The notes beneath the pieces are model-generated. The model had not been told where the DNA came from. It did no database searches and saw only the letters and a list, made by a program, of their open reading frames with translations. Position numbers and translations under genes: made by a program. Positions 1 through 4,290 of a stretch of DNA of 4,290 nt are shown here, piece by piece. The stretch is from a virus (lineage: Duplodnaviria; Heunggongvirae; Uroviricota; Caudoviricetes), in IMG/VR virus record IMGVR_UViG_2740892230_000030, positions 1-4,290 of that record, one strand, 5' to 3'. Each line of letters starts with the position of its first letter. Within the stretch, counting starts at the first letter, position 1.

Positions 1-333
1 AGGCAGATAGCCTCAAGCACCCGCAGCAATTCTAACTATCCAATAGATCAATGCCAACTTCTTTTCCTGCAACATCTCTCATCATAAGTGACCCAAATTC
101 ATCCAATCAGCACAAAAGAAACATTTAAAGCGTGAATGCTACCGAACGTTCATTTCAATTACATCGTTTTGATTTTTAACAGTTTTCACCTCAACAAATC
201 AAATGGCATTAGCATTCATCATGGAAGAAAGACTGATAAAAATGATCATTTTCAATGACTTATGATCACACCGGGTATTGCCAAGTCATTCCTTTTACGC
301 CAGGATACCCACAAGTGAGTAGTCGAGGAGAGT

Positions 334-362
334 TTGCCAATTTTTGCGATATAAATTTCAAT
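334..362 (+). promoter_or_regulatory. Putative sigma70-like promoter for the 410..1507 CDS (TTGCCA at 334-339, 17-nt spacer, TTCAAT at 357-362)
   Basis: Read directly: -35-like hexamer with one mismatch to TTGACA, 17-nt spacer, -10-like hexamer matching TATAAT at 4 of 6 positions, about 50 nt upstream of the ATG. Weak -10; a guess only. Confidence 0.2.
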
Positions 363-409
363 GTCCGAAGAACCATTAATTGTTAATTGATTCTGTATAA
401 GGTATTAAC

Positions 410-1507
410 ATGACAATTTCATATATTCCTATTCTGAAAGCGAAACGTTCTGAGTTATCAGCTTTATCGCAGCTATCCATTGAAAAGAAATCAAAAATTT
501 TGCCATTACTCGAAATTGAACCAGTGCCAATTGACCCTGATTCAGGTATTGCCTTAAAGAGTTATAACGAGACTCTTATAGAGTTCGGAAAGAAAGTCTC
601 AAAATCTTGCTCAGATATGCAAGGTGTTTATATTGATGGATTATTAATTGAAGAGCATTTTATTTCTCCTGAAGATCATTACCCTATAATAAATGCGGTT
701 AATCAAGTTAGAGATATGGGGATAAGAGTTATTCCTGTCAGTTCACCAACTCGCCCATCTAACTATAAAAGAGCGATTGATGAATTAATGCAGAATGAAA
801 TATGCTTGAGATTAACCACGTTAGATCTGGTTAACCCACAATTAATAACGCATTACATTAATCATCTGGGAATTCCTTTATCAAATATTGATATAATTAT
901 TGACTTAAGAGATGAGTTAACCGAGGATAAAATTAATTCCGGCGAACTATATACTTTGGCAATGGGATTGATAAACAATCTGGCGCACCTCAATGAATAC
1001 AGAAAAGTGATTCTTTCTGGGGGTTCATTTCCTACAGATCTCAGTGATATTTCTGTTGGTCTATATTCTCAACCTCGAATCGAGTGGATTTTATGGCAGA
1101 GTTTAATGAATAGAAAAGAACTTGCCAGAAATGTGATTTATAGTGATTATGGAGTACAGCACCCCGACTTTAATAGGCTTTCGACGCGATTCCCTAGCGT
1201 ATCTGCCAGCGTCAGATACTCTGGAGATAATGACTTTTGGGTATTTCGAGGAAGAGTAGCTAATCGCTTTGGTTATGAACAATATGGTAAACATAGTGAG
1301 GATATTCTTGCTCATCGAGAATATTCAGGGCCTACATTCTGTGCGGGAGATAGAGACATAGAATATTATGCAAACGAGTATCAAGCCTACAAAGCCAATC
1401 CCTCTGGTAACTATAAATTTGGTAGCCCAGAGGTATGGCGTAGGATTGGGCAAAACCATCACATAACTAAGGTTGTTGAGCAACTCGCCACTCTTTACGG
1501 GCTTTAA
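410..1507 (+). CDS. 365-aa protein, putative 'beta protein' / sce7725-like family member (assignment from memory, unverified)
   Basis: Track ORF of 365 aa. ATG at 410 is preceded by AAGG (399-402) with a 7-nt spacer. The AT-rich composition is uniform across the ORF and no competing long ORF exists. The N-terminal motif YIPILKAKRSELSAL matches what I recall as the conserved N-terminus of the 'beta protein' family. High confidence that it is coding, low confidence in the family name. Confidence 0.8.
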   Translation: MTISYIPILKAKRSELSALSQLSIEKKSKILPLLEIEPVPIDPDSGIALKSYNETLIEFGKKVSKSCSDMQGVYIDGLLIEEHFISPEDHYPIINAVNQVRDMGIRVIPVSSPTRPSNYKRAIDELMQNEICLRLTTLDLVNPQLITHYINHLGIPLSNIDIIIDLRDELTEDKINSGELYTLAMGLINNLAHLNEYRKVILSGGSFPTDLSDISVGLYSQPRIEWILWQSLMNRKELARNVIYSDYGVQHPDFNRLSTRFPSVSASVRYSGDNDFWVFRGRVANRFGYEQYGKHSEDILAHREYSGPTFCAGDRDIEYYANEYQAYKANPSGNYKFGSPEVWRRIGQNHHITKVVEQLATLYGL

Positions 1508-2045
1508 GTTTAACTCGAACAGCTTCACGAAGCTCGCCAACATCCATACTATTGGCGAGTTTTGACCATAAGACGCGTTTAGGTTTATTTTTCAAATTCT
1601 GTAGCTCCCCTACATCACTTAATAGGGAAAGCAATTCATCTTTCCAAAGAAGCATTGTTAAGGAAAGTTTGTCCACTTGTGGATTCAACTTGCTAGTTCG
1701 AATTGTTTTTAAATGGATACCTTGCCGTGCACCTTGCGTAACTTGCTTTATCCCCCACCATGATGGAACTATGCTTAAAGCATCATAAAGATGGCAATCA
1801 GAGACAACCAAAGTTACTTTATCCATCACTGATGAGTAATGTTGCACCTGCGCTGGTAATCTGAGCAAGTTATCACTCTTGCTCTTCAACTCATAACCAT
1901 GTATAAGCCCATTGATCACTGCTATATCAGCTCTGCTAGCCCCTAGATTCATCGTAAACTCATCAATGATTAGGGTGTCAGGATCTTTATGATGATCTCT
2001 CAGAATCTTGGCATGCACAGCCTTTCTTACATCAATGTCTCTCAT
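1467..2045 (-). CDS. 192-aa PD-(D/E)xK-type nuclease-fold protein, possible sce7726-like partner of the upstream gene
   Basis: Track ORF of 192 aa. The N-terminal half contains the ordered motif set LIIDEF ... RADIAVI ... GYELKS, i.e. E, then D in a hydrophobic strand, then E-x-K, which is the canonical PD-(D/E)xK nuclease core. The Shine-Dalgarno is weak. It is convergent with the 410..1507 CDS and overlaps its 3' end by 41 nt. Confidence 0.75.
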   Translation of the reverse strand: MRDIDVRKAVHAKILRDHHKDPDTLIIDEFTMNLGASRADIAVINGLIHGYELKSKSDNLLRLPAQVQHYSSVMDKVTLVVSDCHLYDALSIVPSWWGIKQVTQGARQGIHLKTIRTSKLNPQVDKLSLTMLLWKDELLSLLSDVGELQNLKNKPKRVLWSKLANSMDVGELREAVRVKLKARKEWRVAQQP

Positions 2046-2077
2046 ACCATAGTTGCGCTTTCATCGACTCTCTCAAG

Positions 2078-2096
2078 CCATGATTCTATATCATGG
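2078..2096. promoter_or_regulatory. Perfect 7-5-7 inverted repeat (CCATGAT-tctat-ATCATGG), candidate operator upstream of the nuclease-like gene
   Basis: Read directly from the sequence. It lies 33-51 nt upstream of the ATG at 2045 on the minus strand, in the likely promoter region. Function is inferred from position only. Confidence 0.25.
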
Positions 2097-2222
2097 TTCG
2101 CATGAATGCCATTTGATATGACCAGTGGTTAAACATTGCACAGAAAAGTGGATGTGTATTTTAACAAAAGCAATGACGGCTAACCATGTTGGTATGTCGA
2201 TAAAATGTTTCAACGTAAGCAT
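2091..2222 (-). CDS. Possible 43-aa hydrophobic small protein (MLTLKHFIDIPTWLAVIAFVKIHIHF...)
   Basis: Internal ATG (2222..2220) of the 78-aa track ORF, immediately downstream of repeat copy 1. One hydrophobic stretch could be a single transmembrane helix. No strong ribosome-binding site. Speculative. Confidence 0.2.
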   Translation of the reverse strand: MLTLKHFIDIPTWLAVIAFVKIHIHFSVQCLTTGHIKWHSCEP

Positions 2223-2230
2223 TATCTGTT

Positions 2231-2303
2231 CCGCCCTTTCAGACGGTCTCCTGATGTTCTGAGGGTGCAGAATCCCTCCGGTTAAGGATTTAATAAAAAT
2301 CGT
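2231..2303. repeat. Direct repeat, copy 1 of a ~74-bp element (CCGCCCTTTC..GGTTAAGGATTTAATAAAAATCGT)
   Basis: Aligns to 2593..2666 with 3 differences (two substitutions and one 1-nt indel). It abuts the N-run at 2304-2313. Confidence 0.85.
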
Positions 2304-2313
2304 NNNNNNNNNN
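2304..2313. other. Run of 10 N (unresolved sequence)
   Basis: Literal N characters, located at the junction of a repeat and a paralogous gene. Confidence 1.
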
Positions 2314-2585
2314 GCAACCAGACACAAACCGGGCCATCTTCCGTATCATGAATGGAACCAATAAACCAGCCATCGCCCTCTGGTCGTTCCGGTTCCCATG
2401 CAGAAATANNNNNNNNNNTCCTCTTCGTCTTTTATTTCGTGGTATGAGTAATTGCAGTAGTTAAAGAAAATATCTTTAGCTTCATCCTGTATTTCATCTG
2501 GTGTTGCATCATCATCCACTTCGAATTCATCCTCGAAATCTCCACCGGCTATTCCCGTTTCAATAATTATTTTGAATTTTCGCAT
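2314..2585 (-). CDS. Very acidic small protein, paralog 1; interrupted by two N-runs, true length and frame unresolved
   Basis: ATG at 2585 opens a 55-codon highly acidic N-terminus (MRKFKIIIETGIAGGDFEDEFEVDDDATPDEIQDE...). Beyond the N-run at 2409-2418, the segment 2314-2408 encodes ISAWEPERPEGDGWFIGSIHDTEDGPVCVWL, near-identical to the C-terminus of the 2714..3025 protein. The two parts are out of phase across a 10-nt gap, so the N-run length is not real or the gene is disrupted. Confidence 0.5.
2409..2418. other. Run of 10 N (unresolved sequence)
   Basis: Literal N characters inside the acidic paralog 1 gene. Confidence 1.
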
Positions 2586-2592
2586 TTCACTA

Positions 2593-2666
2593 CCGCCCTT
2601 TCGGACGGCCTCCTGATGTTCTGAGGGTGCAGGAATCCCTCCGGTTAAGGATTTAATAAAAATCGT
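2593..2666. repeat. Direct repeat, copy 2 of the ~74-bp element
   Basis: Aligns to 2231..2303. It lies between the stop of the 2714..3025 CDS and the ATG at 2585. Confidence 0.85.
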
Positions 2667-2713
2667 TTCTGATTTAAATCTTCAGTATTTAGTTGTTAGT
2701 CGGTTTATAGCCT

Positions 2714-3025
2714 TTATGCTTCGGCCTTATTTCTCAGCCATACACAAACCGGGCCATCTTCGGTGTCATGTATTGAACCAATAAACCATCCATTGCCCTC
2801 TGGTCGTTCCGGTTCCCATGCAGAAATATCAGCATCACACGCATCAAGGTCAGCACATCCTTCATCTCTGAAGCAGAGGACGTATTGAAGATTATTTTCC
2901 TCCATCCAGGCGTTAAACTCTTCCGTTGAAATATATTCCCGACCGTCACAGAATTTTTCATATTCAGGATGCGTCCAGTAGCCATATTCATCACGTACTA
3001 CTGGTATTTCTTTAATTTCATTCAT
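2714..3025 (-). CDS. 103-aa very acidic small protein, paralog 2; function unknown, DNA-mimic or anti-defence role is speculation
   Basis: Track ORF of 103 aa with no N-run. By hand count about one residue in four is D or E and fewer than one in ten is K or R. The ATG overlaps the stop of the upstream 3018..3272 CDS (ATGAATGA), implying translational coupling. The C-terminal ~31 aa are shared with paralog 1. Confidence 0.7.
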   Translation of the reverse strand: MNEIKEIPVVRDEYGYWTHPEYEKFCDGREYISTEEFNAWMEENNLQYVLCFRDEGCADLDACDADISAWEPERPEGNGWFIGSIHDTEDGPVCVWLRNKAEA

Positions 3026-3272
3026 TTCTGTTCTCCCACGTTTTCAGACTTTCACCACAGAACGGACAAAATGAAACCCGAACTGGTAATTTAGAAAATT
3101 CACCGGAACGCAACATCACAAAATCAGGACCGCGAGTTAAACTCTCATTCCAGATTTTGTATATCAGCAGACCTTTTCGCATCGTGTATTCAGCATCATG
3201 CTCAAGGGATTTTGCCAGGGTCGTACACGGTTCTATCTTGTTGCCATAAACCTGGCATTTTGATTTACCCAC
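3018..3272 (-). CDS. 84-aa small Cys-containing protein (Cys pairs C-x9-C and C-x2-C); possible zinc-ribbon-like protein
   Basis: Track ORF of 84 aa with a GTG start preceded by AGGAGG at about 7 nt. The start overlaps the stop of the methyltransferase-like CDS (GTGGGTAA). The first 21 aa (MGKSKCQVYGNKIEPCTTLAK) are duplicated at 3784..3846. Confidence 0.6.
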   Translation of the reverse strand: MGKSKCQVYGNKIEPCTTLAKSLEHDAEYTMRKGLLIYKIWNESLTRGPDFVMLRSGEFSKLPVRVSFCPFCGESLKTWENRNE

Positions 3273-3753
3273 TGGTCGCCTCCTTCACAAAAATAATCCA
3301 ATGTGTTTTATCGTTCTTACCGGTGCGCTGGCTGATGATTGGTTTCGCGTCGGTTAGTGCCAATATCTGGCGGACAGATATTTGCGTTTCATTCCATTTA
3401 AAAATCAGAACGCCATGTGGCCACAACACACGAAAAGCTTCTTTAAATCCCTGCCGCAAATCATCACGCCAGGTATCTTTATTCAACCGTCCATATTTCT
3501 TTCCCATCCAGGCTTTATCACCAACACACTCAAGATGCGGAGGGTCGAATACAACAACCGGAAACGATGCGTCTGCAAATGGTAATGCTCGAAAATCTGC
3601 TATCAGGTCAGGACTGATAATCAGGCGTCGTCCATCACACAATGTGTGCTCTTCTTTTCTGATATCGCTAAATATCGCCCGGTCGTCATTCTTATCGAAC
3701 CAGAACATACGGCTGCCACAGCACATATCAAGAATGGTTGCCGGTGCACTCAC
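3265..3753 (-). CDS. Small (~162 aa) SAM-dependent methyltransferase-like protein, amino-methyltransferase type, with no visible restriction partner
   Basis: Motifs in Rossmann-methyltransferase order: ILDMCCGS (motif I-like), AIFSDIR (acidic motif II-like), VVVFDPPH (motif IV, DPPY-like). The likely start is GTG at 3753, preceded by AGGAGG with a 7-nt spacer. The 193-aa track ORF 3265..3846 fuses this gene to an upstream small ORF across an N-run and should not be taken literally. Confidence 0.7.
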   Translation of the reverse strand: MSAPATILDMCCGSRMFWFDKNDDRAIFSDIRKEEHTLCDGRRLIISPDLIADFRALPFADASFPVVVFDPPHLECVGDKAWMGKKYGRLNKDTWRDDLRQGFKEAFRVLWPHGVLIFKWNETQISVRQILALTDAKPIISQRTGKNDKTHWIIFVKEATSG

Positions 3754-3773
3754 TGCGCTACCTCCTGAAAATT

Positions 3774-3783
3774 NNNNNNNNNN
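3774..3783. other. Run of 10 N (unresolved sequence)
   Basis: Literal N characters between the small-ORF paralog and the methyltransferase-like gene start. Confidence 1.
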
Positions 3784-3846
3784 CTTTGCCAGTGCTGCAC
3801 ATGGTTCTATCTTGTTGCCATTAACCTGGCATTTTGATTCACTCAC
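3784..3846 (-). CDS. 5' fragment (21 codons) of a paralog of the 84-aa Cys-containing protein; 3' part lost in the N-run
   Basis: GTG start at 3846 overlaps the stop of the upstream 55-codon-unit gene. The encoded MSESKCQVNGNKIEPCAALAK matches the N-terminus of the 3018..3272 protein at 17 of 21 positions. Confidence 0.45.
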
Positions 3847-4031
3847 CGCACCACCTCCTCAAAATTCCCCTGATAAAACGCCAGTACGCGCTGCATAACT
3901 TCGCTCTTCCGGCACTCGAGACAGATTATGTTCAGACGCCTGTCGTAGCGGCGTATTTCGCCATCTGGTAATGACCAGATAAGGTCCGGATCAACCGCAG
4001 ATGGTTTCTTCAGCTTTGCCCTTGAGAGTTT
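3843..4031 (-). CDS. Small protein, repeat unit B (…KLSRAKLKKPSAVDPDLIWSLPDGEIRRYDRRLNIICLECRKSEVMQRVLAFYQGNFEEVVR*); 5' end lies in the N-run
   Basis: My own translation of the minus strand from 4031 gives 62 codons then TGA at 3845..3843. No start codon is visible because the 5' end abuts the N-run at 4032-4041. Function unknown. Confidence 0.45.
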   Translation of the reverse strand, partial: KLSRAKLKKPSAVDPDLIWSLPDGEIRRYDRRLNIICLECRKSEVMQRVLAFYQGNFEEVVR

Positions 4032-4041
4032 NNNNNNNNNN
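4032..4041. other. Run of 10 N (unresolved sequence)
   Basis: Literal N characters exactly at the junction of the two 165-bp tandem units. Confidence 1.
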
Positions 4042-4206
4042 ACCCTGATAAAACGACAATATGCGCTGCATAACTTCGCTCTTCCGGCACTCGCGACAGA
4101 TTATGTTCTGACGCCTGTCGTAGCGACGTATTTCTCCGTCAGGTAATAGCCAGATAAGGTCCGGATCAACCACAGATGGTTTCTTCAGCTTTGCCCTTGA
4201 GAGTTT
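4042..4206 (-). CDS. Repeat unit A coding segment (KLSRAKLKKPSVVDPDLIWLLPDGEIRRYDRRQNIICRECRKSEVMQRILSFYQG), bounded on both sides by N-runs
   Basis: Open frame of 55 codons, paralogous to unit B. Start and stop are not visible. Confidence 0.4.
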
Positions 4207-4216
4207 NNNNNNNNNN
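4207..4216. other. Run of 10 N (unresolved sequence)
   Basis: Literal N characters upstream of repeat unit A. Confidence 1.
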
Positions 4217-4290
4217 TTTACGAGCCTGTTCAGACGGGAATAACCCGTAGCCAGAATTGTATACATCGCCACTGGCAACCAGCTCTCTGG
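4217..4290 (-). CDS. Possible 3' portion of a minus-strand gene that begins beyond the window edge (…PESWLPVAMYTILATGYSRLNRLV…)
   Basis: The frame is open from the window edge to the N-run. The track ORF starts at TTG 4278, but the frame is also open upstream of it. Identity unknown. Confidence 0.25.

Follow-up and report, generated by a model that had tools for sequence, protein, structure and literature searches.

The locus analysed here raises the question of whether the AT-rich left part of a viral DNA fragment carries genes that entered a mobile-element backbone as cargo, and, if so, where this cargo begins and ends. The window, i.e. the whole stretch of 4,290 nucleotides, had initially been inspected by eye, and its left ~2.2 kb, including two defence-like genes, had been set apart as AT-rich from a more balanced right half. 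Our comparison with related elements indicates that positions 35 to 2230 very probably form a self-contained accessory cassette, made up around a gop-less beta/cII pair, which has been swapped into a variable slot of a Rac/Qin-type prophage and forms an AT-rich island there.

Positions 1 to 2303 of the window are 99.8% identical to the chromosome of E. coli 90-3040, which provides a contiguous reference locus (L001; window position 30 corresponds to L001 9030) and on which all contiguous-reference composition figures were taken. On E. coli chromosomes, the neighbourhood of the window is a lambdoid prophage. Its backbone is of the Rac/Qin type, with hok/sok, rem, ydfU, rusA and Q on one flank and small nin-like genes, DUF977, replication and cro/cI genes on the opposite flank. 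At least 80% of the window is present in 62 of 5426 complete E. coli genomes, and the leader of the cassette is found in 93 of them (94 places in total, usually one per genome).

The boundaries of the cassette were obtained by comparison with homologous elements lacking the pair, a check that the initial annotation had itself proposed. Against five related prophages without the pair, homology stops at window position 34 (41 in one of them) and starts again at 2231, where a 74-nt junction element begins (in one of them already at 2197). The breakpoints at 34|35, in the hok promoter, and at 2230|2231 enclose an exchangeable cassette of 2196 bp with a GC content of 37.8% (35 to 2230), consisting of a leader, the beta gene, the sce7726/cII-like gene and a spacer. 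In the five other prophages, the same slot holds DUF551, DUF4014 or hypothetical genes with a GC content of 44.5-49.1%, so that unrelated cargo lies between conserved flanks in all of them. The flanks occur in more than 4700 of the 5426 genomes and the cassette in 62-93, in prophages that differ in their replication, immunity and Q modules. A query with fused flanks placed these at most ~0.9 kb apart in 554 genomes, and among the matches listed (30 records), ~0.8 kb of other genes lay between the flanks in 30 of 30. Since a truly empty slot occurred neither in the related prophages inspected nor in the 30 fused-flank records listed, we infer whether the event was a gain or a replacement; it looks more like a hotspot at which one cassette replaces another than like insertion into a backbone with an empty site. 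Together, the homology breakpoints, the other cargo and the presence of the pair in other elements support its acquisition as cargo in a mobile-element backbone, as had been suggested initially, with the homologous elements rather than a GC step providing the support. The right boundary originally set at the first 74-nt element is correct to the base when read as a homology breakpoint.

On the left side of the slot, positions 1 to 34 comprise the 5' end of the hok mRNA leader (minus strand, from 22 down to 1, where it runs off the window) and the -10 hexamer of the hok promoter, TAGAAT (34-29, minus strand). The Rfam sok/hok leader family RF01794 scores 119.8 bits at L001 8847-9022, equivalent to window -153 to 22 and therefore only partial within the window itself, and all six aligned prophage loci differ little or not at all up to position 34. 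As judged from these alignments, positions 1 to 34 are assigned to the backbone (hok promoter and leader) and not to the cargo. This -10 side of the slot ends in GCAATTCTA. Beyond the breakpoint, the AT-rich leader of the cassette (35 to 409, plus strand), located upstream of beta, supplies a -35-like hexamer of the hok promoter, TTGGCA (57-52, minus strand), according to a promoter scan and sequence comparison. The leader is specific to this cassette: the cassettes of P2-like and P4-primase elements share no nucleotide homology with it and become similar only from 415-417 on. The only ORFs in the leader, of 40 and 43 aa, are unconserved, and a consensus scan found no plus-strand promoter for beta in 35-409, the total count of sites being not above that of shuffles.

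The right side of the cassette is a likewise specific spacer (2046 to 2230, minus strand) with a promoter-like site upstream of sce7726 (2112 to 2083, minus strand, from a consensus scan) and a hydrophobic 43-aa ORF following the junction element, which runs on the minus strand from an ATG at 2222 down to 2091 inside the listed ORF 2091-2327. In the Dickeya and P4-primase loci compared, nothing equivalent to this 43-aa ORF precedes cII; it was treated as unconserved and rejected as a third cassette gene. Besides antisense ORFs within the two genes, the other ORFs of the cassette are those of 40 and 43 aa in the leader and one of 45 aa at 2125-2262. Backbone homology resumes in the first copy of the 74-nt junction element (2231 to 2303, minus strand; repeat family D3), of which a second copy is located at 2591-2665. 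The element, aligned here from eight copies in six prophage loci and the window, starts with CCGCCCTTTC and occurs at 1725 places in 949 of the 5426 E. coli genomes; among the matches listed, no annotated feature lies over any of 12 places. It is conserved and intergenic, and ends the nin-like small-gene array. As a candidate structured RNA it was rejected, its folds being not significantly more stable than those of shuffles (z -0.86 and -1.88), and an Rfam scan of the window returned no family besides the partial hok/sok leader.

The first gene of the pair (410 to 1507, plus strand) encodes a beta family protein of 365 aa. Residues 5-356 match the Pfam family Beta_protein (PF14350, E 3.8e-52), the best PADLOC match is PD-Lambda-2_C (E 1.8e-41), and the protein shares 23% identity with P4 beta (BLASTP E 1e-8). 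Sequence searches of both the beta and the sce7726 protein against PDB chains gave nothing below E 0.4, so only fold comparison is informative for either. The AlphaFold model of the beta protein (pLDDT 93.0) predicts a TIM-barrel-like fold, and 25 residues, mostly charged, are invariant, among them D76, R134 and D165. Assignment to a specific enzyme was rejected, as Foldseek returns only generic (beta/alpha)8 barrels with TM-scores of 0.3-0.4 (triosephosphate isomerase, aldolases, a phospholipase D, UVDE). A literature search gave no match for PF14350, and no title or abstract naming sce7726.

The second gene (1467 to 2045, minus strand) encodes a 192-aa sce7726 or P4 cII-like protein that matches NCBIfam NF033832 (E 1.7e-56) and the PADLOC profile 'cll' (E 2.4e-28), and is 28% identical to P4 cII (BLASTP E 2e-17). 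Its putative catalytic signature, made up from E29, D40, E52 and K54, is invariant in 27 and in 40 sequences, including P4 cII and a Gordonia phage homologue. With the predicted structure (pLDDT 93.9), Foldseek retrieves 3dnx (E 4.7e-5), SfsA, Hjc, splicing endonucleases, NucS and the nuclease domains of Can2, with TM-scores that stay at 0.35-0.5, as nothing matches the C-terminal helical half. The intact signature on a modelled restriction-endonuclease-like alpha/beta core predicts a nuclease-like protein of the PD-(D/E)xK type. According to their ORF coordinates, the two genes converge and overlap at their 3' ends by 41 nt (1467 to 1507); the overlap spans 41-44 nt in the Dickeya and Enterobacteriaceae elements, and the beta and cII-like genes also overlap in Gordonia phage Powerball.

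Outside the lambdoid prophages, the convergent overlapping pair was found between gpQ and gpA in P2-like prophages of Dickeya, an interval described as a defence hotspot of P2-like phages (PMC9122126), and in elements with a P4-alpha-type primase. With the beta/cII pair of Gordonia phages, it circulates in at least four unrelated phage or satellite lineages. Nucleotide similarity between the cassettes is restricted to the two ORFs (window 415-2045). In Enterobacterales elements, the pair has a GC content of 38.9-39.4% against 49.6-54.0% in the flanks, remaining at ~39% whatever these flanks are. This pair lineage has a GC content of about 38-39% in every enterobacterial mobile element where it was found; here, it forms an AT-rich island because the backbone around it is at ~48-52%.

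The closest known system is the gop-beta-cII locus of P4 (Ghisotti 1990, as cited in Rousset et al. 2022, PMC9122126), listed in DefenseFinder and PADLOC as 'Rst_gop_beta_cll', which is reported to protect against lambda and P1 (PMC9122126) and to be triggered by the phage accessory gene orf184 (10.1101/2023.04.06.535777); the passages on this locus state no role for cII. Both loci encode homologous beta and cII/sce7726 proteins in the same convergent layout, and both are AT-rich cargo (35.6% GC in P4) in a variable locus of a temperate element. In contrast, gop, the toxic component upstream of beta in P4, has no homologue here (the best tblastn match of P4 Gop in the window has an E of 2.2). 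The cII protein has 264 aa in P4 and 192 aa here, an intergenic terminator separates beta and cII in P4 where the 41-nt overlap is found here, and the host element is a lambdoid prophage here, not a P4 satellite. With beta (PF14350) and cII/sce7726 present and gop absent, the pair in the window is a relative of the P4 anti-phage locus that lacks gop, not a full member.

Further comparisons place the pair in the same slot of a described phage. Rac-SA53 (Escherichia phage, KU052037.1) carries genes annotated as 'beta' and 'CII phage-like protein', with 99.7% and 100% protein identity, between hok/mok and rac21/rac22-type small genes; it differs by an IS1 between cassette and junction element, which is the sole gap in the alignment (after window 2210). 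PD-lambda-2 shares a beta family protein as its third component, the one matched best by the window's beta protein, and this beta-like component C is reported as required for defence (Vassallo et al. 2022, PMC9519451). However, PD-lambda-2 combines it with a HigB-like protein and an Xre-peptidase fusion, whereas the partner here is predicted to be PD-(D/E)xK nuclease-like; in library scans of the beta and sce7726 proteins, the C-like protein was the only PD-lambda-2 component present. PADLOC v2 matches only the parts of the pair, under gop-beta-cII and PD-lambda-2, and a listing as a system of its own is not apparent in the defence catalogues. The slot, in turn, resembles the gpA-gpQ hotspot of P2-like phages and the hotspots of P4-like satellites in having conserved flanks and many alternative cargos (Rousset et al. 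2022), and the P2 hotspot in Dickeya is occupied by close relatives of this pair. Unlike those hotspots, it is bounded by the hok promoter and the 74-nt intergenic element, belongs to the nin-equivalent region of a lambdoid prophage and is not beside cos.

The base composition that had first drawn attention to the locus supports this picture in part. The GC content is 38.0% in 1-2230 and 45.2% in 2231-4290, and the log-likelihood ratio of 11.3 for a break at 2230 exceeds that of shuffled sequences (95th percentile 5.4, maximum 8.4). The likelihood profile is nevertheless flat (8.5-13.4) across 900-3500, with its maximum at 1151 inside the beta gene, and a single-break model of the window was rejected. 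BIC segmentation gives one break at 1150 (35.0% | 43.8%), and its next-best solution adds a break at 3320, not 2230. The initial annotation had located the break between the start of the nuclease-like gene and the first 74-bp repeat, naming the absence of a significant step near 2050-2230 as the result that would refute it. This is what we observed. Two-sided local tests at 2230 found no step within 300 nt on either side (39.3 vs 43.9%, p=0.27), 500 nt (40.0 vs 42.7%, p=0.40) or 800 nt (p=0.33), nor did those at 2050 (p 0.48-0.92); the ±200 test at 2230 was the only one to reach significance (p=0.017), driven by a 170-nt GC-rich stretch made up of the 74-nt element and a scaffold fragment. A GC shift near 1150 is also present in the beta genes of Dickeya, other Enterobacteriaceae and P4, and the break there is intrinsic to beta genes rather than a recombination joint. 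The preference for A/T-ending codons noted at the outset holds for the pair (GC3 0.298 for beta and 0.358 for the sce7726 gene), but the adjacent right-hand genes are alike (79-aa ORF 0.38, 103-aa 0.34, 84-aa 0.38-0.40), and only more distal ones are higher (0.43, 0.53).

The difference between the halves, real as it is, leans on a right half that is an assembled patchwork and not natural sequence. From 2304 to 4290 (minus strand), pieces of paralogous lambdoid prophages are joined by five 10-N runs (2304-2313, 2409-2418, 3774-3783, 4032-4041 and 4207-4216). They contain small nin-like genes, a methyltransferase fragment and two versions of the DUF977 3' end, include the duplicated pieces D1, D2 and D4, and map non-collinearly onto L001 11231-12189 and a second reference locus (L002 8156-9287), re-visiting the same prophage interval and matching paralogues at 82-100% identity. 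The highest GC content in the window (48-50%) lies in 3321-4290, i.e. in the methyltransferase fragment, which has no counterpart in the reference locus, and the two DUF977-end copies. These features would fit an assembly artefact, in which the contrast arises from a chimeric scaffold of GC-richer prophage pieces. We consider this improbable, as the intact reference chromosome gives the same trend, with BIC-optimal segments of 52.2%, 38.5% and 47.5%. The artefact distorts the right half and does not create the contrast, which persists in the finished genome. There, the AT-rich island covers L001 9030-11739, which corresponds to 30 to ~2739 in window coordinates. On the left it has a sharp edge (GC content falling from 51.0 to 35.0%, p=4e-7) within 5 nt of the homology breakpoint, whereas its right edge is gradual and lies ~500 bp to the right of 2230 (p 0.27-0.40 at 2230 itself). 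The contrast is thus real but blunt, with the right junction blurred by adjoining backbone genes of almost the same AT-richness; since the island overshoots the cassette by ~500 bp into these genes, composition alone does not delimit the cassette.

The same overshoot, and the missing step at 2230, would be expected if AT-richness were the ordinary composition of lambdoid accessory or early-region genes, without foreign origin. The adjacent backbone genes are indeed similar (43.3% GC and GC3 0.34 for the 103-aa gene, 42.4% and 0.38 for the 84-aa gene), and the dicB region of the same prophage is equally AT-rich (37-40% GC), so composition alone is no proof of a foreign cassette. Yet the other cargo in the slot is richer in GC than the 37.8% found here, the pair stays at ~39% in Dickeya prophages with flanks of 54%, and the left junction is a sharp 16-point step at the homology breakpoint, which makes ordinary composition an unlikely explanation, albeit the strongest of those considered against acquisition. 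The lack of an empty site, every related prophage inspected having slot content, would also suit a pair that is ancestral to this prophage lineage and was deleted or replaced elsewhere. Such an origin is highly improbable given the rarity of the cassette relative to its flanks, its presence in prophages whose replication, immunity and Q modules differ, the occurrence of the pair in P2-like elements, P4-primase elements and actinophages, and a composition unlike that of the flanks.

A swapped cassette in a variable slot therefore remains our preferred reading. Homologous recombination in the conserved flanks would exchange the cassette for other cargo, and the stretch between the hok promoter and the 74-nt element in Rac/Qin-type prophages could be a cassette slot driven by recombination, similar to the P2/P4 hotspots. 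In a lysogen, the pair may act as an abortive-infection or exclusion module, with the nuclease-like protein as putative effector and the beta protein as its sensor or restraint; the known toxin of P4 is Gop, whose absence from the cassette speaks against a defence function. The combined proposal that the gop-less pair works on its own as a two-gene anti-phage system, with a TIM-barrel protein and a PD-(D/E)xK nuclease-like effector whose control is aided by the 41-44-nt overlap, and that recombination drives the slot, is tentative and somewhat less probable than its negation.

The GC contrast seen by eye pointed to the right biology, a swappable prophage cassette, while misplacing the compositional edges. 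For delimiting cargo of this kind, flank-homology breakpoints are far better than composition, and the well-defined slot between the hok promoter and the 74-nt element could be used to look for other cargo across thousands of E. coli genomes. With this locus, the P4 beta/cII family gains a location in a lambdoid prophage and an architecture of two overlapping genes without gop.

The first 2,303 nucleotides of the window match the chromosome of E. coli 90-3040 (contiguous reference L001, 9001-11303) with 99.8% identity and are likewise matched by many STEC genomes (O111, O103, O121). Further right, five runs of exactly 10 N each (2304-2313, 2409-2418, 3774-3783, 4032-4041 and 4207-4216) separate pieces that map repeatedly onto one prophage interval (L001 11231-12189, or 8156-9287 in the prophage locus L002) with 82-100% identity. 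The sequence right of 2303 (2304-4290) is a scaffold of paralogous lambdoid prophage pieces and no natural linear sequence, and several right-half features are therefore products of scaffolding. The joins have artificially produced an apparent 174-nt tandem repeat (3868-4041 / 4043-4216), duplications of 94 nt and 62 nt, and a 193-aa "methyltransferase" ORF (3265-3846), in which the N-terminus of a paralogue of an 84-aa gene is joined to a methyltransferase over an N run.

The initial annotation had read the AT-rich left ~2.2 kb as foreign cargo, with a GC and codon-usage break near 2050-2230. The two halves do differ in GC content (38.0% for 1-2230, 45.2% for 2231-4290), and the log-likelihood ratio for a break at 2230, 11.3, was higher than in any of 200 shuffles, which had a 95th percentile of 5.4 and a maximum of 8.4. 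The step near 2050-2230 is nevertheless refuted on its own terms: local GC tests at 2230 and 2050 (±300 to ±800 nt) were not significant (p 0.27-0.92), the break-likelihood profile peaks at 1151 and is flat from 900 to 3500, and BIC segmentation of the window chose a single break, at 1150. Nor does codon usage mark a step there: GC3 is low in the two cassette genes (beta 0.30, sce7726 0.36) and similarly low in the next three ORFs to the right (0.34-0.40).

The break at 1150 falls within the beta gene (410-1507), where GC rises from ~34% to ~44% about two thirds along. A recombination joint was considered as the cause and rejected, because beta genes of Dickeya, Enterobacteriaceae and P4 share the shift, their first two thirds likewise being more AT-rich than the last third; the break is intrinsic to beta genes. 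In L001 (5000-15000), the BIC-optimal segments have 52.2%, 38.5% and 47.5% GC, and the AT-rich one spans 9030-11739, corresponding to window 30 to about 2739. On its left side the change is abrupt (51.0 to 35.0% GC, ±500 nt, p = 4e-7), on its right side gradual. The observation is thus partly confirmed, in that the AT-rich island is real while its edges were misplaced and its comparator was an assembly patchwork.

The cassette (35-2230) lies in a Rac/Qin-type lambdoid prophage, with lysis genes, tRNAs, Q, rusA, ydfU, rem and hokD on one side and two small genes, DUF977, replication genes, ydaT, cro/cI and dicB on the other. Homology to five related prophages without the gene pair ends at window 34 (41 in one) and restarts at 2231 (2197 in one). 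On the left, the sequences are identical or nearly so through ...GCAATTCTA and then unrelated; on the right, they show no relationship until the first base of a 74-nt element, CCGCCCTTTC..., where conservation sets in. Between these boundaries the cargo of the five prophages consists of DUF551, DUF4014 or hypothetical genes with 44.5-49.1% GC, compared with 37.8% for the cassette. A fused-flank query found both flanks at most ~0.9 kb apart in 554 genomes, and in all 30 of the records listed the intervening genes were other than the pair. The cassette leader is present in 93 of 5426 genomes, and prophages with the cassette vary in their replication, immunity and antiterminator modules. Based on this comparison with homologous pair-less elements, the interpretation of the pair as cargo acquired in a mobile-element backbone is supported. 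Insertion sequences (IS1, IS3/IS1203) occur within or beside the cassette in several genomes (L004 7802-8567; L017 3285-4447; matches H8, H20, H23 and H24), and in strain PEC240 the beta gene is disrupted by an IS1.

The left junction (34|35) lies inside the hok mRNA promoter (22-57, minus strand), next to the 5' end of the hok mRNA leader (1-22, minus strand; Rfam RF01794, 119.8 bits in L001). The -10 TAGAAT (34-29) belongs to the backbone and the -35-like TTGGCA (57-52) is supplied by the cassette, through which the cargo may alter hok transcription; other prophages have TTTGCG or TTTGCT at this position. The 74-nt element at the right junction (2231-2303, with a further copy at 2591-2665) is conserved and intergenic; 949 of 5426 E. 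coli genomes contain it, with 1-5 copies each and 1725 places in total. Its RNA folds were not significantly stable. Homology restarts at its first base, and on the minus strand all the cassettes compared have an ATG 7-9 nt beyond its end, which gives the element the appearance of a shared 5' UTR or ribosome-binding region serving also as a recombination joint. A 43-aa ORF (2091-2222, minus strand) that includes a hydrophobic segment, MLTLKHFIDIPTWLAVIAFVKIHIHF..., begins 9 nt past this element, at the place where the first gene of other cassettes starts; it has no RefSeq annotation, and nothing upstream of cII in other elements corresponds to it.

The 365-aa beta family protein (410-1507, plus strand) matches Beta_protein PF14350 over its full length (E 3.8e-52), with PD-Lambda-2_C as best PADLOC match; its confident structure model (pLDDT 93.0) resembles only generic TIM barrels. 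The 192-aa sce7726 family protein (1467-2045, minus strand; NF033832, E 1.7e-56) also matches PADLOC "cll", the P4 cII protein. The solved folds nearest its confident model (pLDDT 93.9) are PD-(D/E)xK proteins (3dnx, SfsA, Hjc, splicing endonucleases, and the NucS and Can2 nuclease domains), and residues E29, D40, E52 and K54 are invariant, including in P4 cII and the Gordonia phage homologue. The two genes converge with a 41-nt overlap (1467-1507), whereas in P4 a terminator separates beta and cII. No gop homologue was found in the window, so the locus is not classed as a full gop-beta-cII system. Phage Rac-SA53 (KU052037) carries an identical pair, already annotated as "beta" and "CII phage-like protein".

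Homologues of the pair (62-71% protein identity) occur in Dickeya P2-like prophages (L010), flanked by gpA and the portal gene gpQ, which is where the P2 defence hotspot lies according to Rousset et al. (PMC9122126), and in enterobacterial elements whose primase is of the P4-alpha type (L013). Both retain the convergent arrangement with a 41-44-nt overlap (6539-6579/6582 in L010 and L013). The pair is also found in Gordonia phages Powerball and DumpsterDude, and overlaps in Powerball too (L005 4545-4633). Among enterobacterial cassettes, nucleotide similarity is limited to the two ORFs (window 415-2045), and the pair has 38.9-39.4% GC regardless of flanks of 49.6-54.0%; P4's own pair has 35.6%. 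Taken together, this supports a compositionally distinct module that circulates horizontally. A hicA/hicB toxin-antitoxin pair adjoins beta/cII in the Dickeya prophages (L010 5055-5672) and in Powerball (L005 2725-3317), which could be due to chance or reflect a recurrent association.

P4 gop-beta-cII is described as protecting against lambda and P1, with Gop toxic unless beta is present (PMC9122126), and the phage accessory gene orf184 as its trigger (10.1101/2023.04.06.535777). The beta-like PD-lambda-2C is reported to be needed for defence, not for toxin neutralisation (PMC9519451). Several temperate elements carry the pair in a variable or defence slot. In the gop-less form, the PD-(D/E)xK protein would be the effector, which beta would sense or restrain. 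A separate promoter for each gene, at sites of consensus level only, would allow expression in the lysogen, and cassettes would be exchanged by homologous recombination across the hok-promoter flank and the 74-nt element. As a whole, the locus is an ordinary case of a prophage hotspot that carries AT-rich accessory cargo, with genes already named in public annotation; slightly new are the gop-less, overlapping two-gene architecture across four kinds of element and the precise delimitation of the slot in Rac/Qin-type prophages.
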